Shown: piece after piece, positions 1 through 16,832 of the stretch
How the letters are laid out: every line of letters begins with the position of its first letter
Numbering within the stretch: position 1 is the first letter of the stretch
Origin: Caldilineae bacterium
GTDB taxonomy: Bacteria > Chloroflexota > Anaerolineae > DTLA01
Direction: 5' to 3'
Assembly (NCBI GenBank): GCA_037446815.1
Contig: JBBIHX010000002.1
Coordinates: forward strand, 7,641-71,640
Length of the DNA: 64,000 bases
Position numbers and translations under genes: made by a program
Notes under the pieces: generated by a model
The model's database searches: none
Told to the model about the DNA's origin: nothing
The model's input: only the letters and a program-made list of their open reading frames with translations

Positions 1-113
1 ACTACGGCTAGGGCAATCAGTGCCGTGAAGAACCCGATGACGCCTGCGTACATCATCCCCAGCGGCAGCGTAAACGCATAGATCACGGCGGCCACCAAGA
101 TGAGACCATTCAC
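1..113 (-). CDS. Partial (5' end only) membrane protein. N-terminus VNGLILVAAVIYAFTLPLGMMYAGVIGFFTALIALAV reads off the window start.
   Basis: Hydrophobic TM-like minus-strand translation starts at a GTG (alt. ATG at ~56) and continues past position 1. No stop inside the window. The RBS is weak. Confidence 0.3.
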   Translation of the reverse strand, partial: MNGLILVAAVIYAFTLPLGMMYAGVIGFFTALIALAV

Positions 114-838
114 CGTTCTTAGCGACTTCCCCGCGGGCTGGGTCGCGCTCGGGGCCACCGGCCCTGCCGGTGCATTCGGCGCAGCCGCAGCCACAAGCGC
201 CGCGCCGCAAGACTCGCAGAACCTGGCGTCATCTCTGTTTTTCGCACCGCAGTTTGGACAATACGCCATGACCCTACCTCCTCATCACATGCAATGGCTT
301 TGTACACCCTGTGTACTCATGCCCACTGACGCCGGACTGACAATCGGCCTGCGGGACCCCACCGCGTTCCTCGGCGCGTCGCTGCCGCATCGTGCAACCC
401 AATGGCTACGGCTCGCACGCGTCGGTTGCCCCCTCCTCATCCGGCTGTGCGGGCTCCTGCAAACTCGCCATTCGCCACAGTTGCGCCAGCAACTCTTGCG
501 CGTCGGCGAAGGAATACTCGGCGTTGTCCGCGACGGAATACAGAGAGCCGCGCATTTCGTTTGGGCATTCTGTGTCTACCAGCAACCGCAAGATAAACGT
601 CTGCGTTCTTCGCATGCCGCACCCGCTGCAAGGGATTCGCCTCGCTTCCAGAGCGCATCGATAACCGTCCGCGCCAATGCGCGGATCGCACGTAGCCGTC
701 CGTGCCGCGACGGCTCGCCGCATCGCCTTGGTCGCGACCAGAGGCAGCCCCAACGGACCTCGCAACCGCGTCGGGAATTCACGTCTCGGCGCTACTGTAG
801 CCCGTCGGACTGACACTCGGCTGACAGGCAGACCCCGC

Positions 839-2923
839 CTACGGGGTCGCCGTGCCCTGCTCATCTCGCAGCAGCGAATGGTACAAACGGCGGAGGGGTT
901 CCTGCGGGGTGGTGTTCAACTCCTCACGGAGGGCCTGTTCCAAAGTGCGGTACAATCGCAGCGCGCCGGCCCGATCATGGAGGGACATGCACGCCTCCAT
1001 GCCCAAGAGAACGGCCTCTTCTTGCCATGGGTCCATTTCCAGAATCCTGTGGCAGGCATCCAGCGCCGCCTCAGCCTGGCCCGCCTCCATCCGCGCACGA
1101 GCAGCGCCGTACAGCGCGCTCATGTGCAGACGCCGCAGGCGCTCACGCGGCAGCACAGACCAATCCGCATAGATATCATCGGGGAAGAGGTCGCCCTGGT
1201 ATATGCAAAGAGCGGCTTCCCAGTCCTTGGCTCGCACCCGCGCCTCAAACTCCTCAAAATCCACAACGGATTCCGATGGAAGAGTCAGAACAATCTGTCC
1301 TTCCTCCAGGCGCAGATACTGCGACGGAAACTTGTCCGGCAGGCCCGGCTCCAGGGCGCGGCGCAGCGCCGATGTCGCCTGGTGCAACAGCGCCTGGGCA
1401 GAATCTGGCGGCTTGTTCGGCCACAGCGCTTCCACGACCTGATCCCGCGTCAGGGTACGCCTATGCGCCAGCAGAAGCATACGGAACAGTTCGCCGGCGC
1501 GCCGTTGCCGCCACGCGTGCGCCGGAATCGCGCGCCTGTCCCGCCGCACCTCAAAGCGGCCCAGCGTGAAGACCTGGAGGGGATGAGCGGGAACACGGGC
1601 AAGGTGTTCCAGCAGGTCAGCCGTCAGCGCCGCAATCTCAGCGTCCGAGTGCCGCGCGTATGCGGCGACGAGAGGATAGACCGTCGCGCGCTCCTGATCC
1701 ACGAGAAAGCCGTAGTTCCCCTGGGTGATGCTTCTGGCCGCGTCTCGCCACGCGGCTGTGGCTTCGGCCCGCCCCTGCTGATGCAGAAGGGCCGCAAGAA
1801 ACAGCCGCGCCCGCGCCAGGTCAAACGCTGCACCTATGGTTTGCAGCAACTGAACGGCCGCTCGCCAGTCCGTTTCCGCAGCCAATGCATCGCCCAGTTC
1901 CCACGAGGCGCGCCCGCGCTCAACAAGCGCCATGCCCTCAAGATGCAGATACTCGGCGCGGGCGGCGATCGTCGCGGCGTCGTTCGCCCACTGGTGCGCG
2001 GCAGACGCATTGCCACACGCCCGCTGCAGGCGACTCATTCCCAAGCGCACAAGGACATTCACGCTGATCTCGCCGGTCTTCGTGCCGATAGAGTGAGCCT
2101 GAGCGTAGAGCGCCTCGGCTTGTTCCAAGTCGCCCCTCTCCTGCGCCAGGAGCGCCGACAGGCAGCACCGATACCCCTCCAGGGCGGACCCAGGAGGGAC
2201 CACTGCGCTCAACCGCGCCACGGCCTCGTCGGCCAGGCGCCACTGGCCCTTCAAGCAGTACACCCACCCCAGGATGATGAGGGCAAAGGGGACAAGGTCG
2301 CTGGCATTCGCCTCGTCGGCGAGACGCAACACCTCGGTATCCGCCGCCACCGCCAGGTCAAACTGACCTCGCGGCATGTACACGCCCGCTGCCAGGTTAT
2401 GAAGCCCCCGAAGCAACGCCAGCCGATACCCCAACTGGCGGCTCAAATCAATGGCTTGGCGATAGTACTCCTCACCCGCGTCCAGATCGTCGGTCTCGGT
2501 GGCGCACAGTCCTAGCAGCAGCAGCGCGTCAACGCGGGCTGGCGCGTTACCCCCCGACTGGGCCAGCACCTCCTGCCCCAGCGCTTGCGCTTCCGCGTAG
2601 TGGCCCAGGCGAAAGTGAAGCAGGCCAATCCGAATCAGCGCCGCAAGCGTTGCCGGTAGGTCATCGGCTGCGCGCGCCTGCCCAAGAGCCTCGGCTGCCC
2701 GCTCCATCGCTTGTGCAATGTCGCCCCCGGATTCCAGCCGAACGCTCGCCTCAAGGAGGTCCGCAACCGTGCGATGGATGTCCATGTCCCAGCCCAGAAC
2801 CCAAAACCCAGAAGACAGCCCAATGCACCACGGGAAGACAAGCAGAGGGGCATGCTTGTGAAGGGAATCTGCTCGTATTCCCTGACCCACCCTGCGAGTG
2901 AAGGCAGCCTCGCATTCCGACAC
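839..2923 (-). CDS. TPR-repeat transcriptional regulator with C-terminal OmpR/PhoB-type winged-helix + BTAD (SARP-like) module
   Basis: The C-terminal ~250 aa (VFTLGRFEVRRD...ALWP...SALRRAL, followed by ...ALYGAARARMEAGQAEAALDACHRILEMDPWQEEAVLLGMEAC...) match SARP wHTH + BTAD. The N-terminal ~430 aa are TPR-like helical repeats. The true start may be an internal Met (e.g. MDIHRT). Confidence 0.7.
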   Translation of the reverse strand: MSECEAAFTRRVGQGIRADSLHKHAPLLVFPWCIGLSSGFWVLGWDMDIHRTVADLLEASVRLESGGDIAQAMERAAEALGQARAADDLPATLAALIRIGLLHFRLGHYAEAQALGQEVLAQSGGNAPARVDALLLLGLCATETDDLDAGEEYYRQAIDLSRQLGYRLALLRGLHNLAAGVYMPRGQFDLAVAADTEVLRLADEANASDLVPFALIILGWVYCLKGQWRLADEAVARLSAVVPPGSALEGYRCCLSALLAQERGDLEQAEALYAQAHSIGTKTGEISVNVLVRLGMSRLQRACGNASAAHQWANDAATIAARAEYLHLEGMALVERGRASWELGDALAAETDWRAAVQLLQTIGAAFDLARARLFLAALLHQQGRAEATAAWRDAARSITQGNYGFLVDQERATVYPLVAAYARHSDAEIAALTADLLEHLARVPAHPLQVFTLGRFEVRRDRRAIPAHAWRQRRAGELFRMLLLAHRRTLTRDQVVEALWPNKPPDSAQALLHQATSALRRALEPGLPDKFPSQYLRLEEGQIVLTLPSESVVDFEEFEARVRAKDWEAALCIYQGDLFPDDIYADWSVLPRERLRRLHMSALYGAARARMEAGQAEAALDACHRILEMDPWQEEAVLLGMEACMSLHDRAGALRLYRTLEQALREELNTTPQEPLRRLYHSLLRDEQGTATP

Positions 2924-3058
2924 CCGCTTCCTCGCGGCGCAAGTATAGCGCAGCGGTTATCCCGCGTCAACGCCCTCCGAACGGCACCGTAGGGCTCTGG
3001 AGCGCGGCGCGCTGGCAGGTCTCGCAGCCCACAACCCTTCGCTCCGGCGGATCAGCGC

Positions 3059-6000
3059 CTATCGCAGTTTGGCAACATCGGCCTGTGCTCTGGCCCAGGC
3101 CGCGACAAGCGACTCATCGCATTGGGTAGCCGACGCGAGTTCGGCATCGGCGCTTGCCGTGTCCCCCCGCATCATGTAGGCAAGGGCCAGGGCGAAACGT
3201 GCGCGAGGCCAGAGCGGCACCTGTCGCGCCAGGTCTTGCGCAAGTGCCACAGCCTTGTCCAGCGCGGCCGAGGAATCGGACGACGAGCCTCGGCGAGCCA
3301 ACGCCAGCCCCTTGCGGATTTCCAGGCCAATCACCAGCAATGAGGCCTCATCCTCTCCCATTTGCTGCCCATACCCCGGCAGGAGCGCGCCCACAGACTC
3401 ATAAGCGGTAAGCGCGCCCTCCACATCGCCTTGCCGCAACGCAACGTCGCCCAGGGCCTGCTGCGCGCTGGCGCTGTTCGGGAATGCAGCCAGGGCGGCC
3501 TGGAACTCGCCGGTGGCGGCGATGAACCGCTCCCTCGCGTACTCCACTTTTCCAAGCAACTCATGGGCCAGCGAGAGAAGCAGCGGCGGGTTGTTTGGAG
3601 CCGCCAGCACAGCCTGCACCTGCGCCTCTGCCCCATCCAGGTCGCCCTGGCGCAGCAGAAAATCGGCGGCGAGGAAATGGGCCAGCACGTCGGCCGTTGG
3701 AGATGCCGCAAGTTCCGCGTAGATGGCAGCCGCCTCTTGCGTGCGGCCCCGCGCCTCATAGACCGAGCCCAGGCCCGCCTTGTACAGCGCGGAACCCGGA
3801 GCGGCAACAACCGCGGATTTGAGCGCCTGCTCCATATCACTCAGGTTGCAGCGCCGGTACGCCACGCGCGCTATGCCGTAGAGCGCGTCGGCGCAGTTTG
3901 GGTTCACCGCCAGCGCGGCGCGGTACTCCGCTTCGGCCTCGGAATCGCGGGCGGCCGCCAGGTACAAGTTGGCAAGGGCCACGCGGCTCTGCCAGTCCTG
4001 CGGGTCTAGCGCCACAGCCTTCTGATACTCCGATGCAGCCCTGTCCACATCGCCCAGCAGAATGCAGAGGGCGCCCATCTGACGGCGCAACGGTGCGCTG
4101 TCGGCGATCTTTGCCTGCTCGGCGTAGGCCGCCAGCGCGTCTTGCAGCCGCCCCATCCGGGCATAAGTGTCTCCCAATCCTGCATAGGCAATAGCGGATC
4201 GCGGGTCCGCCGCGATTGCCTTCTGATACTCCGCAATGGCCGCCTCGTATTTCCCCTGCTGAAAATACGTCCCGCCCAAGAACGCCCGCACATCTGGATC
4301 ATCCTGGAGCGCCAATGCCTTCCTATATGCTTCGGCTGCCTTGTCCCAGTCCTGCAGCCGCCAATAGGCATTCCCCAGCGCGGTGTGGTATGCGGGGACA
4401 TCTGGAGCGTACCGAACCGCCAGCGCGTGCTCGGACACGGCTTTCTGGTGCTCGCCCAGGTCGGCATAGACCAACCCCAGCGAGTAGTGAGCCTCGGCCA
4501 TGTCGGCTTGCAACGCGATAGCGGCCTGCAGGTACTGCGCCGCAACATCCAGTTGCCCCTCCAGATAGCTGAGATTGCCAACCAAGTACAGCGTGCTGGG
4601 GTCTTGCGGCTCAATTGCCAACGCCTGCTCAAACTCGCGGATTGCAGCCTGATAGTCCTCCTTCTCCGTGTAGATGAACCCCAACAGCAAGCGCGCCGAC
4701 GGGTCGCATGAGGACAAGGCGGCCGCCTGACGGAGGGCGGCGACAGCCTCATCGATCCTGCCCTGCTCCTTGTACAGCAGGCCCAGCAGGAGGTGCGCGT
4801 TGGCATCCTTGGGCCAGCCAGTAGCCCAGGCTTTGTACTCGGCTTCCGCCCTGTCTAGTCTTCCGCTCCAGTAGTAAGCATTCCCTAGGCCCCAGCGAAC
4901 GCGATGGTCATCGGGTTTCAGTTTCCCCGCGGCCTCGTATTCCGCAACAGCCTTGTCGTACTCACCCGCCGCGACATAGGCATTCGCCAAATCCAGGTGC
5001 GCCTGGAACGGGTCCGGCGGCCTCTGGCTGGCGGCCTTCGCGCGCAGCCCAACGGCCGTGCGACGCGAGTTCTCCGCCTCGGCGGCCAACCCCATCAGCG
5101 ACTGAGTCGCTCCCAGAAGCTCATAGGCATCGGCCCGGTCCGGTGCGATTTCCACAGCCTTCTGGAACTGCGCCAGAGCCTTCTCATGCTGACCCCGCTG
5201 GCGATACAGGTCGCCGAGAAGCAGATGCCCATCGGGCAGGTCAGGCCTGAGGCGCACGGCCTCCTCAGCCTCAGCGATGGCAGCGTCCAGTTGGCGTGCG
5301 GGCGTGCACAGGTCTGCCAGGACAATGGCCAGGTTGTAGTGCGCCTCATACGAATCGGGCTTCAGCGCCAGCACCTGTCTGAGGTCGGCTGCCGCCTCAT
5401 CGGGGCGGCCCAGCGCGTACAGCGCCGCTGCGCGCTGGAAGTACACCGTGTCCACGCCAAGGATGGCCGTGCCGCCCGACGCGGAATGGCCGACGGCCTT
5501 GTCAAACATCATCAGAGCATGCTCCATGTCGCCATTGATGTAAAAGGCCATTCCCAAGATCGCAGACGAAACGTAGGCAACCTGTTGCGGGCCGTTCAGC
5601 GCGAACACCTCAAAGTCCGTCAGGGTTGCCGGCACCCGCACGAAACGGGCCACATCGCTCAGCCCTGCTTCGGGCGCCCCCACAAGCCCGCCCGACACCG
5701 CGTACAGCAGCGACCGACCGATGAGGGGCAGGCCAAGGGCTTCGCGCTGCAGGCTCGGGACGCGCAGAGGCTCGGCCCTCATGCTGACGCCGCGCGCGTC
5801 GTACCACCCCCAAATGACGAGCGTACCCTTGCGTGCTGCACCCGCGGCGCGTGCTTCCGCAGCATCTTCATAAGCCTCCTTCGTCCGCACCACGCGAACC
5901 GTAGTCTCCAGGCCCCGAAGTTCGCTTTCCAGATACTGCTCAAAGTGCCCTGCGAAATCCACCCACGCAAGGCTTGCGTCGGTGCGACGAAAATCGGCAA

Positions 6001-7255
6001 GAACCACAATATATCCGCTCGGAGGACGCAGGCGGTTGTAGCCCGACCACGTGCCCCAGATGAGTCCCGCCGCTGCAATCACACCGAACAGAACAAAGGC
6101 CCGCCTCCGGCGAACCCCTCTGGGCGTCCGCAGTGCCACGTAGAGAGCCAGTCCCGCCCCCGCCAAGAACAGCGGTGCAATCACGTAAGGAAAGTACTTC
6201 ACCAAAGGGGCTATGGGCGCCACAATCGCCTTGAACAATTGGCCGACGATCTGGTACGCAGCGAACAGGATGCTGATGATGCCGAGGATCATCGCTAATC
6301 GGCTGCGAAAATCGGTAGGCGCATGATCCACTGAGGGCGCCGTCTTCCCCGCCAGCGGCGCGATGACACCGATCGCACGCGCCAACTTCACGAGCCAGTC
6401 TTCCTTGGGTCTAGGAGGGGCAGCCTCATGAGGAGCCTCAGGCTTGGCCGCCAGCGCCGTGCGGAACGCCTGTGCCAGTTCTCCCGCGCTTGCGAAACGC
6501 TCGGCAGGGTCCTTCGCCAGCGCACGCAGGATCACCTGCGCCGCCGGTTCCGCGAGGTCGGGCCTGAACTGCCGCGGAGACTGCGGGGGCACAGTGCGAT
6601 GCTGCTCCAGCACCGCCGTAGACGACGCGCCTTGAAACGGAACGCGCCCGGTCGTCATTTCGTACAGCAACACGCCCAGGCAGTAGATATCGCTGGCGAC
6701 GGTTACCGAGCCGCCTGCCGCCTGCTCCGGCGATGCGTACGTAGCGGGAATGGCATCGGCAACACCCACTCGGGCCAGCGTCCTTCCGACGCCAAAGTCG
6801 GTAAGGATAGGATCACCCGAAGCGGTGAACAGAACGTTGCCGGGTTTGACCGCGCCGTGAACAACCCCATGCGCGTGGGCGTAGTCCAGCGCCGCAGCAA
6901 TCCCGTCCAGGATCCGCGAAACCTCCAGGAGGGGGAGGGTTGCGCCGGCCTGTCGCAACTCCGCAAGGCGGTCGCGCAAGGTGCCGCCAGCCAGGAACTC
7001 GGTTACAACGAACGCGCGACCGTCCTCCAGACAATCAAAGTCGTAGAACGGGACGATGTTCGGATGGCGCAGCGCGGCGATTCGTACGGCTTCAGAGCGA
7101 AACGCCTCCAGGAAAGCCCCACCGGCATGCCCAAGGATCACCTTGACGGCAACCCGCCGGTCCAAGACGGGATCCATTGCCTCGTAGACTTCGGCGCGAT
7201 CGCTGCGGTGAACGAGCCGGGTTGCCACATATTTGCCCAATCGCTGCACGCCCAT
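3059..7255 (-). CDS. Ser/Thr protein kinase with TM segments and a ~900-aa C-terminal TPR array
   Basis: Hanks kinase motifs are present (VAVKV, HRD-like HGAVKPGNVLF, DFG, APE), then a Pro-rich linker, 2-3 hydrophobic helices and many TPR repeats. The start is placed at MGVQRLGKY (ORF codon 108 = 7255). The tool ORF extends to 7576 through repeat sequence. Confidence 0.8.
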   Translation of the reverse strand: MGVQRLGKYVATRLVHRSDRAEVYEAMDPVLDRRVAVKVILGHAGGAFLEAFRSEAVRIAALRHPNIVPFYDFDCLEDGRAFVVTEFLAGGTLRDRLAELRQAGATLPLLEVSRILDGIAAALDYAHAHGVVHGAVKPGNVLFTASGDPILTDFGVGRTLARVGVADAIPATYASPEQAAGGSVTVASDIYCLGVLLYEMTTGRVPFQGASSTAVLEQHRTVPPQSPRQFRPDLAEPAAQVILRALAKDPAERFASAGELAQAFRTALAAKPEAPHEAAPPRPKEDWLVKLARAIGVIAPLAGKTAPSVDHAPTDFRSRLAMILGIISILFAAYQIVGQLFKAIVAPIAPLVKYFPYVIAPLFLAGAGLALYVALRTPRGVRRRRAFVLFGVIAAAGLIWGTWSGYNRLRPPSGYIVVLADFRRTDASLAWVDFAGHFEQYLESELRGLETTVRVVRTKEAYEDAAEARAAGAARKGTLVIWGWYDARGVSMRAEPLRVPSLQREALGLPLIGRSLLYAVSGGLVGAPEAGLSDVARFVRVPATLTDFEVFALNGPQQVAYVSSAILGMAFYINGDMEHALMMFDKAVGHSASGGTAILGVDTVYFQRAAALYALGRPDEAAADLRQVLALKPDSYEAHYNLAIVLADLCTPARQLDAAIAEAEEAVRLRPDLPDGHLLLGDLYRQRGQHEKALAQFQKAVEIAPDRADAYELLGATQSLMGLAAEAENSRRTAVGLRAKAASQRPPDPFQAHLDLANAYVAAGEYDKAVAEYEAAGKLKPDDHRVRWGLGNAYYWSGRLDRAEAEYKAWATGWPKDANAHLLLGLLYKEQGRIDEAVAALRQAAALSSCDPSARLLLGFIYTEKEDYQAAIREFEQALAIEPQDPSTLYLVGNLSYLEGQLDVAAQYLQAAIALQADMAEAHYSLGLVYADLGEHQKAVSEHALAVRYAPDVPAYHTALGNAYWRLQDWDKAAEAYRKALALQDDPDVRAFLGGTYFQQGKYEAAIAEYQKAIAADPRSAIAYAGLGDTYARMGRLQDALAAYAEQAKIADSAPLRRQMGALCILLGDVDRAASEYQKAVALDPQDWQSRVALANLYLAAARDSEAEAEYRAALAVNPNCADALYGIARVAYRRCNLSDMEQALKSAVVAAPGSALYKAGLGSVYEARGRTQEAAAIYAELAASPTADVLAHFLAADFLLRQGDLDGAEAQVQAVLAAPNNPPLLLSLAHELLGKVEYARERFIAATGEFQAALAAFPNSASAQQALGDVALRQGDVEGALTAYESVGALLPGYGQQMGEDEASLLVIGLEIRKGLALARRGSSSDSSAALDKAVALAQDLARQVPLWPRARFALALAYMMRGDTASADAELASATQCDESLVAAWARAQADVAKLR

Positions 7256-7427
7256 TTTGCATGCCCTCCCATGCAAGGGGAACCTATCCGCGCCCAGGCT
7301 GGTGTGGCTGGTCCACCGCACCCTGCCGATGCAGCAGCGTGGATGATACTCACCATAGCACGAACACAACAAACCGTCAAGGCGCGCACGCCACGCCGCG
7401 CCGCTGCGCCCAGGCGTCCTCTGGTAC

Positions 7428-7530
7428 TGCCATTGCGAGGGCACGGAGCGCCTGAAGCAACCCCTGGGAACTGTCATTCTGAGCGGCGAAGCCGCGAAGA
7501 ATCTAGGCCACCGAGAGGCTTCGCCTACAT
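7428..7530. repeat. Composite/degenerate repeat with a family-A half (cattgcgagggcacggagcgcctgaagcaacc) joined to a family-B half (ctgtcattctgagcggcgaagccgcgaagaatc...ggcttcgcc)
   Basis: Sequence identity to cores of repeats elsewhere in the window. A terminus-like fragment ccaacacaagccgaacc lies at 7568-7585. Confidence 0.6.
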
Positions 7531-7603
7531 CCCAGCATGGCACAGGGAGAAGCAACGTGCGGGCCACCCAACACAAGCCGAACCCGGCTCACGTTCTCTC
7601 AAG

Positions 7604-7751
7604 TCGGTCCCAAAGTCTGTTGGTGGCTGTCATTGCGAGGGCACGCAGTGCCCGAAGCAATCCCCGGGGCGTGGGGTTGCTTCGCTTCGCTCGCAATGAC
7701 ACACGAGGAGAGTGCGCCTACGGTTCCCCAACACAAGATGAAACCGACTCC
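7604..7751 (+). repeat. Family-A palindromic MITE/REP-like element, copy A1
   Basis: tcggtcccaaagtctgttgg...gtcattgcgagggcacgcagtgcccgaagcaatc...ggttgcttcgcttcgctcgcaatgac...ccaacacaagatgaaaccgactcc. Internal inverted repeats; near-identical to copies A2-A5. Confidence 0.85.
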
Positions 7752-7839
7752 TTCCCTCGGCGCGGTTGACGCCGGCGCTGCGCATCCGCTATAATTGCCA
7801 CGACAACCCATCCAAACCCTGCACAAAGGAGGTCTTCCC

Positions 7840-8610
7840 ATGACGCTCAAAGGAAAACGGGTCGCCGTTCTGGCCGAAGAGATGTATCAGGAATTGGAAC
7901 TCTGGTATCCCGCCTTGCGCATGCGCGAGGCCGGCGCCGAGGTCAAAATCATTGGAACAGGCAGCAGCCCCACCTATGCATCCAAGCACGGGTACCCGGT
8001 TACCGTAGACATAGCCGCAGACCAGGTGTCCGTCACCGAGTTTGACGCCGTCATCGTCCCCGGCGGCTATGCCCCCGACCGTATGCGCCGCTACCCTGCC
8101 CTCCTGAAGTTGGTGCGCGAGGCGTTCGAGCAGGGCAAAGTCGTGGCCGCCATCTGCCACGCAGGTTGGGTGTTGGTATCCGCGGGCATCCTCAAAGGTC
8201 GGCGGGTAACCAGCTTCTTCGCGATCAAGGACGATATGATCAACGCCGGCGCGACTTGGGTTGATGAGCCGGTGGTGCGAGACGGCAATCTCATCACATC
8301 CCGCATGCCCGACGACCTGCCCTACTTCTGCAACGCCATCATCCAGGCGTTGGGCGGCGGCGAGGTCAACGCCGAAATTGTAGAGACGACCACGGCCAAA
8401 GAGGCCCTCGCCATCGCAGTCCGCGCGGAGGAGCAGGCCGCCGCCTTCTACAAGGCCGCCGTCCGCCGCACGCGCGACCCCGAGGCCAAAGCCATGTTTG
8501 AGGAACTGGCAAAGGAAGAACTCGCCCACAAAGCGCGCCTGGAGAAAGAGTACGCACACCTCAGCGGCGATCCCAACTGGGCGCGGTACGAACTGTGGGG
8601 CAACCTGTAG
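7840..8610 (+). CDS. DJ-1/PfpI (ThiJ) family domain fused to a C-terminal ferritin/rubrerythrin-like helical domain
   Basis: Nucleophile elbow AICHAGWVL and PGG motif; C-terminal AEEQAAAFY...EELAKEELAHKARLEKEY (one ExxH half-site). RBS aaaggagg precedes ATG 7840. The tool ORF begins at 7795. Confidence 0.8.
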   Translation: MTLKGKRVAVLAEEMYQELELWYPALRMREAGAEVKIIGTGSSPTYASKHGYPVTVDIAADQVSVTEFDAVIVPGGYAPDRMRRYPALLKLVREAFEQGKVVAAICHAGWVLVSAGILKGRRVTSFFAIKDDMINAGATWVDEPVVRDGNLITSRMPDDLPYFCNAIIQALGGGEVNAEIVETTTAKEALAIAVRAEEQAAAFYKAAVRRTRDPEAKAMFEELAKEELAHKARLEKEYAHLSGDPNWARYELWGNL

Positions 8611-11492: not shown

Positions 11493-12668
11493 ATGGCATT
11501 GATACTCCGAAACGCGCGCCTCATCACACCCATAGCCATCGTGGACCGCGGGACCGTCGTCATATCGCAGGATGGCCGCATCGCCTACGCCGGGCCGGCC
11601 GAGGGCGCGCCCGACTCCGCCGGCGACTCGCTGAATCTGGAAGGCTTCACCCTTACGCCGGGTTTCATAGATATCCACACCCACGGCGGCCACGGCGTAG
11701 CCTTCGGAGCCAGCGGCGATGCCCGTGGCGAACTCCGCGCGTACTCCGAGTGGGCGGCGGGCCATGGCGTTACCGCCTTCCTTTGCTCCCTCGCCGCTCC
11801 CGATGCGGATGCTCTATTCCGCCTCGTGCGCGCCTACGCCGATGCGCTGGACACGGAGTTGCCGGGCGCGCAAGCCCTGGGCATCCATCTGGAAGGGCCA
11901 TTCCTGAACCCGGCGAGGAAGGGCGCATTCCCCGCCTCATGGCTCCACGCCCCCGCCGTAGACGAGGCGGAACGCCTGCTCCGTGCGGGCAGAGGCCGCA
12001 TTCGCGTCGTAACCCTAGCCCCCGAACTCCCCGGCGCCATGGCTGTCGCGGCGGCGTTTCGGGAAGCCCGCGTTGTCGTCGCCATGGGGCACACGGATGC
12101 GGACTACCGTGCCGCCGCCGAGGCGCTGAGCGGGCCCTTCTCGCACGTAACCCACGCCTGCAATGCTATGCGTGGGTTGCACCACCGCGAGCCCGGCGCC
12201 CTGGGCGCGGTGCTTGCATCGGACCGCGTGTCTGCCGAACTCATCGCGGACGGCGTCCACGTGGACCCGGGCGCGATGCGGATACTCCTCCGCTGTCTGG
12301 GGCGCCGCCGCATCATCCTCGTAACCGATGCCGCGCCGTGGGCCGGCCTGCCCGATGGGGAGTACGAGTGGCTGGGGCAGTCGGTGCGCGTGAGCGGCGG
12401 GCGGGCGACGCTCCCAGACGGCACGCTGGCCGGAAGCACCGCAACCCTGGACGTTTGCATACGGACCGCCGCGGGGCAGATGGGCATTGGCTTCGCCGAC
12501 GCCGTGCGCATGGCGACGCTCAATCCCGCCCACGTGCTGGGCTTGCACCGACGCACGGGGCGGCTATCCGTCGGCGCGGACGCGAACCTGGTGGCGCTGG
12601 ATGCGGACGGAAATGTTGCAATGACCTTCGTACGGGGCAAGAAGGTCTACGACCGGGCGCTCACGTAG
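11493..12668 (+). CDS. nagA: N-acetylglucosamine-6-phosphate deacetylase
   Basis: Amidohydrolase motifs PGFIDIHTHGG and MGHTDA, with the typical NagA start MALILRNARLI. An alternative start is at 11454. Confidence 0.8.
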   Translation: MALILRNARLITPIAIVDRGTVVISQDGRIAYAGPAEGAPDSAGDSLNLEGFTLTPGFIDIHTHGGHGVAFGASGDARGELRAYSEWAAGHGVTAFLCSLAAPDADALFRLVRAYADALDTELPGAQALGIHLEGPFLNPARKGAFPASWLHAPAVDEAERLLRAGRGRIRVVTLAPELPGAMAVAAAFREARVVVAMGHTDADYRAAAEALSGPFSHVTHACNAMRGLHHREPGALGAVLASDRVSAELIADGVHVDPGAMRILLRCLGRRRIILVTDAAPWAGLPDGEYEWLGQSVRVSGGRATLPDGTLAGSTATLDVCIRTAAGQMGIGFADAVRMATLNPAHVLGLHRRTGRLSVGADANLVALDADGNVAMTFVRGKKVYDRALT

Positions 12669-15998: not shown

Positions 15999-16142
15999 CG
16001 GAACGTCCTCCTGTTCTCCGAAATCTTCTGGGTCAAGTATAGACGGCTCGGCGATATTGCGCAACTGCTTTACAGGCGCTCGCTTATGCTGTACAATGGG
16101 GTTCGCGCGACGGATTGTGCCGCGCGGGAAAGGAGAGGCTGG

Positions 16143-16832
16143 ATGATCGCAACCCGAGGGATGGTCATCTTTCGGGCCTTGCCGACACGCAAGCCGGCAG
16201 TCCTGCACCACGACGTTGGCGCAAGCGGGCCGCAGGCACCCGACCCCGACTGGGTCGCCGATTTCCAATCCGCCCACGGGCGCGACCCCAACGAGCAGGA
16301 CTGGCAGGATCACCTCCTGTCCCTCCGCTACCCGGGCACTGGCCCCAACGGCGAGTGGTTGGAGCGCGACTGGGACGTGTACTACCGGCTTGTGGACCTG
16401 CTGGGCGGCGACCTGCTGAGCCAAATCGGCAAGCCTGGAGCGCGCGGCGCCGGCTTCTACTCCGGTGTCGGCGCGCTCCTCGCCCTGTGGAGATTGGAGC
16501 CAGGCCCCGACGGAACGCGCATCGCCTACGTCCGCAACTTCCCCGCGGGCGGCATCCCCCCAAACACCACCGGCTGGACCTGGGGCAACACGATTCTCAT
16601 CTTGGAGAGCGAGCGCAACAACCGTCCGCTCCTCATGCACGAGTACACGCACGTCCTCCAGTACCGACACAAGGGCCTCGGCTATGTCCCGGACTATCTC
16701 AAGGGCGGTTTGTACAACTGGGACAACAACCCGTATGAGATGCAGGGGGTAGAGGTGCAACAAATCTACGAGTGGAATCCCTGGCTCCCACCCATCTGGG
16801 AACTCGTGTGGGCGGGCGGGAGGTCACGGTAA
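16143..16832 (+). CDS. DUF4157-like zincin protein with an HExxH motif (LLMHEYTHVLQY)
   Basis: RBS aaggagagg precedes ATG 16143. The HEYTHVLQ motif resembles the DUF4157 HExxHxxQ signature. The tool ORF 15267..16832 is a frame run-on upstream. Confidence 0.55.
   Translation: MIATRGMVIFRALPTRKPAVLHHDVGASGPQAPDPDWVADFQSAHGRDPNEQDWQDHLLSLRYPGTGPNGEWLERDWDVYYRLVDLLGGDLLSQIGKPGARGAGFYSGVGALLALWRLEPGPDGTRIAYVRNFPAGGIPPNTTGWTWGNTILILESERNNRPLLMHEYTHVLQYRHKGLGYVPDYLKGGLYNWDNNPYEMQGVEVQQIYEWNPWLPPIWELVWAGGRSR

Follow-up and report, generated by a model that had tools for sequence, protein, structure and literature searches.

A TPR-first SARP-type regulator of Chloroflexota with a small downstream gene behind a tandem box, and a kinase-like membrane protein encoded beside it in one lineage

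SARP activators have been described as exclusive to actinobacteria, and the SARP domain is N-terminal in every one of their classes (small, medium, large and SARP-LAL) (PMC10972967). AfsR of Streptomyces coelicolor has the order SARP-NB-ARC-TPR and acts on afsS, a small-protein gene of about 65 codons, through a tandem direct repeat that lies about 8 nt upstream of the -10 box, in place of the -35 element. Here we describe a locus in a 64,000-nt stretch of contig JBBIHX010000002.1 from a Caldilineae bacterium (the window, always cited at its full length), in which a regulator gene encoding a TPR sensor followed by a SARP module stands between a gene for a 69-residue protein downstream and a gene for a very large kinase-like membrane protein upstream. 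The regulator represents a large family of Chloroflexota that is conserved full-length, and its conserved partner is the downstream gene of about 65 codons, not the kinase.

As in the SARP family, the regulator has an OmpR-type winged helix-turn-helix (wHTH) domain with a BTAD domain directly after it. A repeat of SARP geometry with an 11-bp period, its predicted binding site, is conserved beside the regulator gene. As in the AfsR-AfsS system, a SARP module and a TPR sensor are joined in one protein, the tandem direct repeat takes the place of the -35 element, and the putative target is a small-protein gene, here directly downstream behind the box. The domain order is the opposite of that in AfsR, TPR first and SARP last, and Pfam and NCBIfam gave no match to NB-ARC, AAA or another ATPase domain in the regulator. 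Although the region can be likened to AfsR and afsS, it departs from the SARP class in three features: the module is C-terminal, the host belongs to Chloroflexota rather than to the actinobacteria, and control of a biosynthetic cluster is not indicated, as none of the regulator's neighbours is a biosynthetic gene. The small protein itself is likened to AfsS by size and gene position only.

Two further systems share parts of this arrangement. In MalT/LAL regulators a sensor superhelix followed by a C-terminal DNA-binding domain is the normal order. The regulator has the same sensor fold and order as these STAND proteins without their nucleotide-binding oligomerisation domain, and its output is a SARP-type wHTH and BTAD where theirs is a LuxR-type HTH. 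PknH-EmbR of Mycobacterium tuberculosis is, beside AfsK/AfsR, a further pair of kinase and SARP regulator. In that pair, too, the gene next to that of the SARP-fold regulator specifies a Hanks-type membrane protein whose sensor region is extracellular, as is predicted for the protein of the window. However, PknH is an active kinase, whereas the kinase-like protein of the window has HGA in place of HRD, and EmbR has an N-terminal SARP module and a C-terminal FHA domain that reads phospho-threonine, whereas Pfam detected no FHA or other phospho-recognition domain in the regulator.

The regulator and its small downstream gene

The two genes and the domains of the regulator are placed as follows.

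839..2785, minus strand: regulator gene, 648 amino acids, start MDIHR (ATG at 2785); also called as 648 amino acids by NCBI
1595..2785, minus strand: regulator residues 1-397, a 21-helix superhelix of the MalT-domain-III / TPR sensor type
1271..1588, minus strand: regulator residues 400-505, an OmpR-type wHTH with the recognition helix at about residues 460-478, including HQATSALRRALEP
854..1261, minus strand: regulator residues 509-644, a BTAD helical domain (PF03704 at 61.6 bits and a structural match)
406..615, minus strand: small gene, 69 amino acids (MRRTQTFILRLLVDTECPNEMRG...); the fold has three strands and one helix, and the tail is acidic and disordered; NCBI calls the same 69 amino acids

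Pfam matches to TPR_12 and TPR_MalT fall in the first 330 residues of the regulator, TPR_MalT with 40.1 bits being under its cut-off of 45. The BTAD match (residues 518-639 in the 648-residue numbering) is well above its cut-off of 22.1 bits, and Trans_reg_C remained sub-threshold with 23.1 bits against a cut-off of 26.2. This weak match is rescued by further results. Positions 408-640 of a 70-sequence family profile are collinear with the SARP module of AfsR (8jke, 8k60 and 8hvr; E = 2e-13 to 1e-10), with E = 2e-13 against AfsR residues 35-284, and an AlphaFold model on the family alignment (pLDDT 92.9, pTM 0.81) shows the OmpR-type pattern strand-strand-helix-strand-helix-helix-hairpin at residues 403-500. 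In this model 21 helices at residues 7-397 come before the OmpR-type domain and a helical domain follows at residues 509-644; the structural match spans both wHTH and BTAD. The family profile also matched EmbR. A 694-residue reading frame from 2923 was set aside as an over-extension of the regulator; its extra 46 residues are common to no homolog, and the NCBI call is the shorter one.

The preliminary description, made from the sequence alone, had proposed a giant kinase-membrane-TPR protein next to a regulator with N-terminal TPRs, a C-terminal wHTH/BTAD module and hence an inverted domain order. Its account of the domains holds up. The kinase-like protein has matches to Pkinase and TPR families of Pfam, three hydrophobic segments and a C-terminal part of about 990 residues that includes the TPRs; the layout of the regulator is borne out by Pfam, the AfsR profile alignment and the AlphaFold model, and the inversion is real, with the SARP module at residues 400-644 of 648 behind the TPR superhelix at 1-397. 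Of the two C-terminal domains it named, BTAD was found above cut-off, whereas Trans_reg_C was not found by Pfam at threshold and the wHTH is supported by the family profile and the model instead. The domain matches of both proteins are far above chance and do not represent a chance pattern.

More than 400 full-length homologs of the regulator, of about 640 residues and 48-75% identity, were found. Their named sources are Anaerolineae, Caldilineae, Thermoflexia and 'Chloroflexota' metagenome-assembled genomes (MAGs), and the relatives are Chloroflexota MAGs of Anaerolineae, Thermoflexales, Caldilineae and Ardenticatenales. Databases already list the family's members by generic labels, 'DNA-binding SARP family transcriptional activator' at JGI and 'TPR protein' at NCBI; among the papers searched for SARP in Chloroflexota, none on this family was found. 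One genome per species was scanned, which gave 80 regulator loci, cited below by L numbers. A few short contigs among these carry other phylum labels, for which binning errors are possible. Some MAGs have two copies of the pair of regulator and small gene (L031/L032, L058/L077, L008/L055), and the copies of L031 are apparently in tandem, with small genes at 12124-12303 and 16088-16303.

Position clustering of all open reading frames (ORFs) in the loci revealed a small same-strand ORF 40-150 bp past the regulator. A hidden Markov model (HMM) of this gene located it past the regulator, in the same orientation, in 65 of the 75 informative loci, which are those whose sequence extends downstream by 400 bp or more; in 56 the two genes are direct neighbours. 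A word-index search with the 69-residue protein matched only the protein itself, and the family has no Pfam model. An exhaustive HMMER search of 1.84 billion representative proteins returned 120 clusters at E<=1e-3, nearly all of them stand-alone proteins of 53-104 residues; five longer proteins matched the HMM in short repeated stretches only.

An AF2 model built with the library relatives reached a pLDDT of about 90 in the core of the small protein, which in the window begins with MRRTQTFILRLLVDTECPNEMRGSLYSVADNAEYSFADAQELLAQLWRM... Its N-terminus, MRRTQTFILRLLVD, falls within a predicted strand, no hydrophobic signal segment is visible, and the conserved part is the folded N-terminal 50 residues rather than a C-terminal peptide. 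These features bear on a comparison with the RRNPP systems (PlcR-PapR, NprR-NprX, Rap-Phr, AimR-AimP), in which a TPR-type regulator likewise has a small gene directly downstream. In RRNPP proteins the HTH, where there is one, is N-terminal, and the small genes of these systems code for pro-peptides that carry signal sequences and are secreted. Peptide signalling of this type was rejected for the present locus, since the small protein lacks a signal peptide, is predicted to fold and is conserved in its N-terminal 50 residues. The leader of the small gene in the window is about 165 nt long, and an Rfam search over 1..8000, which includes this leader, gave no match.

Behind the small gene, many loci have a large ORF whose product begins with a signal peptide; it stands at -46 to +100 nt, often overlapping the small gene or leaving no gap (L006 3291-7946; L009 4861-10674; L013, L031, L045, L055, L059 and others). 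Domains in these ORFs include Beta_helix/NosD, LVIVD, NHL, CarboxypepD_reg, Chlam_PMP, Big, DUF11 and Ig-like. The encoded proteins do not form one family across loci, so it is no more than a hint that the module may control surface or secreted proteins.

The tandem box upstream of the small gene

The regions 5' of the small genes contain a direct tandem repeat, TGTCAGT-N4-TGTCAGT, with an 11-bp period. The corresponding sites in the window, the downstream gene that the second one precedes and the regulator codon discussed below are these.

794..825, minus strand: SARP-box-like putative promoter serving the small gene; the box GTCAGC-cgagt-GTCAGT (825..809) is followed after 9 nt by the -10 element TACAGT (799..794)
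325..341, minus strand: second, perfect box GTCAGT-ccggc-GTCAGT, about 55 nt ahead of the zinc-ribbon gene that comes next
1..269, minus strand: gene for a membrane protein with a zinc ribbon (CPNCG...CESCG), of which the window, where it starts, includes only the 5' part; the ATG is at 269
about 1379-1381, minus strand: codon of regulator residue 469

The 1.23 Mb of DNA in the loci hold 50 perfect GTCAGT-N5-GTCAGT sites, with about 0.15 expected (by arithmetic, for 12 fixed bases). In 42 different loci such a site lies 0-300 bp past the regulator stop on the same strand (42 of the 50), and most of the remaining sites either overlap the stop codon or stand ahead of a small gene that an inserted gene has separated from the regulator. 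When up to two mismatches are allowed, 69 of the 80 regulator loci have a box. The displaced small genes of L036, L045 and L052 keep the box although they are about 1.5 kb away from the regulator's stop. The window as a whole has only two sites with at most one mismatch (825..809 and 341..325; 0.13 expected), and there is no box in the window ahead of the kinase-like gene or the regulator gene itself. The first of the two reads GTCAGCcgagtGTCAGT and starts 14 nt past the regulator stop codon.

The consensus of 52 distinct sites is TGTCAGTCntnTGTCAGTcnncnnTGcTATaaT. In 34 of these 52 sites a TAnnnT element that fits a -10 begins 9 nt after the 3' hexamer, which equals 8 nt after the heptad GTCAGTN. 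SARPs bind direct repeats, which overlap the -35 and end 8 nt before the -10 (PMC11301090), and the geometry of the predicted box matches this rule. In several loci (L036, L045, L048, L052) the ATG of the small gene is only 6-7 nt past the -10, which implies a leaderless mRNA and fixes the -10 assignment; the small-gene transcripts of these four loci are probably leaderless.

Boxes with two mismatches were examined for the form of their changes. The same variant hexamer occurs in both repeats in 13 of 21 such boxes past the regulator, compared to 2 of 49 elsewhere; the paired variants seen were GTAAGT twice, GGCAGT twice and GTCAAT twice. Residue 469 of the recognition helix is His in 7/7 GGCAGT loci and Gln in 34/39 GTCAGT loci, a pattern confounded by relatedness. 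This residue may be a specificity determinant, and shared ancestry could also explain the pattern. Judged from the position and geometry of the box, the regulator quite likely drives the small gene directly.

The second box of the window has a perfect equivalent before the orthologous gene in L081, is decayed in L082/L083 and is absent from L085/L087/L088. The zinc-ribbon gene behind it has a strong GAGGAGG ribosome-binding site, and its translation matches DZR/Zn_Ribbon proteins of 147-151 residues that are encoded at the same place in L081, L082 and L085. An ORF on the opposite strand (100..813, plus strand, 237 amino acids) is most likely a shadow ORF: it lies opposite the small and zinc-ribbon genes, has no Pfam match and was matched only in L001, over the DNA of the opposite-strand small gene.

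The kinase-like neighbour

The kinase-like gene lies upstream of the regulator gene on the same strand.

3059..7255, minus strand: kinase-like gene, 1398 amino acids (ORF and translation, Pfam)
7193..7210, minus strand: degenerate glycine-rich loop H16-R-S-D-R-A21, where homologs have G-R/K-G-G-M-A/G (alignments)
6851..6859, minus strand: catalytic-loop triplet H133-G134-A135 in place of H-R-D, the catalytic Asp being replaced by Ala (HMMER alignment)
6041..6301, minus strand: three predicted membrane segments, residues 319-341, 354-375 and 386-405 (Kyte-Doolittle peaks 2.2, 2.04 and 1.75)
7352..7380, minus strand: putative promoter of the kinase-like gene, TTGACG-17-TATGGT, the -10 being preceded by TG (consensus scan, pattern match only)
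2942..2970, minus strand: the regulator's own putative promoter of sigma-70 type, TTGACG-17-TATACT, within the gap between the two genes (consensus scan, 10/12 matches)

An exact-sequence look-up retrieved an NCBI record on an 89,649-bp contig, in which the same products of 1398 and 648 amino acids are called. The gap between the kinase-like gene and the regulator gene is 273 bp, and the -10 region of the regulator's promoter-like site, TGCTATACTTG, was found again upstream of the regulator in L081 and L082.

A bilobal kinase fold is present in the 1398-residue protein: residues 21-255 match Pkinase (PF00069) with 108.8 bits, and PknA and PknB match the domain at E = 1e-40 to 1e-37. Behind the membrane segments come a juxtamembrane domain and an extended array of TPRs, with more than 20 TPR-type Pfam families matching about residues 566-1300. 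In a gap-free HMMER alignment to M. tuberculosis PknA, 'vvhGAvkpgnvlf' stands against 'lvhRDvkpgnili', and the glycine-rich loop reads 'rlvHRSDRAevyea' where PknA has 'rliATGGMGqvwea', without a single glycine. K38, E55, N140 and the DFG motif (D153) are kept. The catalytic triad is incomplete: K38 and D153 are present and the HRD Asp is A135. In a search of 5.8 billion proteins, P0121/P0248 was the only close full-length ortholog found (63% identical). It has HVA for HRD and 'YQGERA' in the glycine-rich loop, and it shares with the kinase-like protein a deletion of about 9 residues in the activation loop.

Bacterial pseudokinases are recognised by the loss of any one of the beta3-Lys, the HRD-Asp and the DFG-Asp (PMC12599244), and the kinase-like protein is called a pseudokinase here because its HRD Asp is lost. 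On these residues the domain is probably catalytically inactive. The known families (the MviN pseudokinase domain; ActPs1-3, GLW, CP1, DYD, DLHK) have likewise lost one residue of the triad, and the protein does not match the motif patterns quoted for these seven families (PMC12599244), as it has lost the HRD Asp and the glycine-rich loop and kept the VAVK Lys and DFG. Two homologs of 38-39% identity, P0129 and P0130, have the same kinase-membrane-juxtamembrane-TPR layout with GKGGMG and HRD kept; their genes adjoin that of a double-FHA protein, not a BTAD regulator. By the same criterion, the pseudokinase would have arisen recently within an active receptor-kinase lineage. Other homologs (P0122-P0128) are about 870 residues long. 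P0122, the one member aligned, has a degenerate N-terminal kinase-like domain (VHGNLNPSN, without a glycine-rich loop) and then a canonical kinase domain (HQDVKPGN), a tandem pseudokinase-kinase layout.

The loop between membrane segments 2 and 3, LRTPRGVRRRRA, contains 6 Arg. Since the kinase fold should be inside and this Arg-rich loop follows the positive-inside rule, the protein is predicted to be N-in/C-out, with about 990 C-terminal residues and all TPRs outside the cell. With this topology the TPR arrays of the kinase-like protein and of the regulator could not meet.

The conservation of the gene pair was examined by tblastn of three parts of the kinase against the 80 regulator loci. 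No relative of the window kinase was detected; the one match, in L062, is an unrelated kinase of 31% identity about 4.3 kb upstream of the regulator. At least 5 kb of upstream sequence is available in 49 of the 80 loci, and the count of relatives in these is 0/49. L002, with a regulator 61% identical to that of the window, has no kinase in its 3.7 kb of upstream sequence. Wide conservation of the two genes as neighbours is therefore rejected. The pair was found in the window and in four loci of two related lineages, in which the regulator is 63-75% identical. In L081 (regulator 75% identical) the kinase homolog is 73% identical over 1157 residues up to the contig end and the gap is 365 bp, and in L085, L087 and L088 (regulator about 65%, kinase 63% identical) the gap is 70 bp. 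In the P0002 contigs (L082-L084, regulator 75% identical) no kinase 3' end was seen in the 315-427 bp upstream before the contigs end. These contig ends consist of a short tandem repeat (SAFSAFSA / LRSLRSLR when translated), which may be an assembly-breaking repeat.

L087 also has a divergent DJ-1/PfpI-rubrerythrin gene upstream and a zinc-ribbon gene downstream, placed as in the window. Because general synteny, including the unrelated DJ-1/PfpI gene, is kept at this distance, the adjacency within the narrow clade is weak evidence of function and may be simple inheritance. The divergent gene in the window is the following.

7795-8610, plus strand: DJ-1/PfpI gene (188 bits) fused to a C-terminal rubrerythrin-like segment, divergent from the kinase-like gene and syntenic in L087

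A strong promoter-like site, TTGACG-18-TATAAT at 7766..7795, precedes it, and the -10 abuts the listed TTG start.

Proposed mechanism, alternatives and meaning

The reading that we find on balance probable is an old module resembling AfsR and afsS that works without phosphorylation, with a pseudokinase gene inserted upstream in one lineage. The regulator would be a cytoplasmic one-protein sensor-activator, with the MalT-type TPR sensor (1-397) ahead of the C-terminal SARP module. The TPR domain would be the input and bind a protein or peptide ligand. No NB-ARC/ATPase switch is present. If AfsR at the afsS promoter is taken as the model, two DNA-binding domains would sit side by side on the tandem TGTCAGT repeat with its 11-bp period. 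The repeat appears to replace the -35, and 8-9 nt separate its end from the extended -10 downstream. The regulator would recruit RNA polymerase to the gene directly downstream and activate it. The output would be the protein of about 65 residues with three strands, a helix and an acidic tail and, in many lineages, a large surface protein with a signal peptide in the same operon; the second box in the window would serve the zinc-ribbon membrane protein too. The small protein could feed back on the TPR domain or act on the transcription machinery as proposed for AfsS. The kinase-like gene would be a lineage-specific insertion derived from active kinase-TM-TPR (TM, transmembrane) receptors, with the catalytic Asp and the glycine-rich loop gone and the activation loop partly deleted. 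Its product is most likely a non-catalytic membrane protein with a large TPR region outside the cell, and any coupling to the regulator would be by binding through the cytoplasmic pseudokinase domain and not by phosphorylation.

Several points weigh against this reading. The link between box and regulator is drawn from position and geometry, and because the box is directly past the regulator stop, its conservation could in part be due to termination or to some other factor. The -10 that goes with the window's second box is poor (TACACA), and the membrane topology was derived from hydropathy alone. The 70-bp gap in L085, L087 and L088 suggests co-transcription of kinase and regulator there, hence some functional tie. 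Finally, some kinases without canonical motifs still transfer phosphate, for instance the WNG kinases, which have no glycine-rich loop (PMC6442604), and with K38, E55, N140 and DFG kept residual or alternative catalysis is possible.

From the gene pair the preliminary description had derived a switch of the AfsK/AfsR kind: the TPR-SARP regulator would be phosphorylated by the membrane kinase, which might dock to it via the two TPR arrays, and transcription would be switched in this way. In the window and the four related loci the two genes are indeed same-strand neighbours, the kinase fold is intact with four conserved elements kept, and AfsK/AfsR itself is a known kinase-SARP pair (PMC10972967). 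However, AfsK is an active kinase, whereas the homolog here lacks the catalytic Asp (HGA for HRD) and the glycine-rich loop and has a shortened activation loop. The loss is found in the ortholog too, and phosphorylation of the regulator by this protein is therefore unlikely. The regulator also has its own promoter-like site and no phospho-recognition domain, and the pairing is confined to a narrow clade and absent from the 80 other loci of the regulator family, which is largely the outcome that the preliminary description had named as refuting it. Direct contact between the TPR arrays would not be feasible with those of the kinase-like protein outside the cytoplasm, as its topology is predicted. 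The phosphorylation switch as originally phrased is largely not supported, and we consider it very improbable. Coupling without catalysis would retain the pair: a transmembrane pseudokinase would sense the outside through its TPRs and hold or release the regulator by contact between pseudokinase and TPR domain, as an anti-activator or scaffold. Adjacency kept over 63-75% identity, with the 70-bp gap in three loci, speaks for this, as do a loss of catalytic residues that is conserved and not accidental, which points to selection for a non-enzymatic role, and a sensor domain of the protein- or peptide-binding type in the regulator. Against it, the synteny of the clade takes in the unrelated DJ-1/PfpI gene, so adjacency may be inherited, and most members of the regulator family have no such neighbour. 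This coupling appears unlikely, and it is doubtful whether there is any functional tie between pseudokinase and regulator. A combination of both ideas, a class-wide reversed AfsR-AfsS-like module in filamentous Anaerolineae-type Chloroflexota that in one lineage is under a binding-only transmembrane pseudokinase, seems improbable.

It could also be that the tandem TGTCAGT is not the operator of the regulator but the site of another factor or a 3'-end mRNA element, the regulator acting elsewhere. The repeat begins within tens of bases of the regulator stop and in L054 and L059 overlaps it. Yet it goes with the displaced small gene rather than with the regulator stop in L036, L045 and L052, keeps a fixed distance of 9 nt to the -10 box and stands ahead of a different gene (DZR) in the window and L081. 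The repeat is direct and not inverted, therefore it would form no terminator hairpin, and the change of Q469 to His in all seven loci with GGCAGT boxes, confounded as it is by relatedness, also connects regulator and box. This alternative is quite improbable, and the direct action of the regulator on the small gene remains our preferred reading of the box.

The regulator family combines a SARP fold and SARP-box geometry with the reverse layout and no ATPase switch, and it is conserved across a poorly studied group of Chloroflexota. Its kinase-like neighbour, taken as a pseudokinase on its residues, offers a clean example of the recent birth of a pseudokinase within an active receptor-kinase lineage. 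Because candidate operator, target gene and regulator are all defined by sequence, the system is directly testable, and the module could give a first handle on gene regulation in Anaerolineae, possibly of surface proteins.

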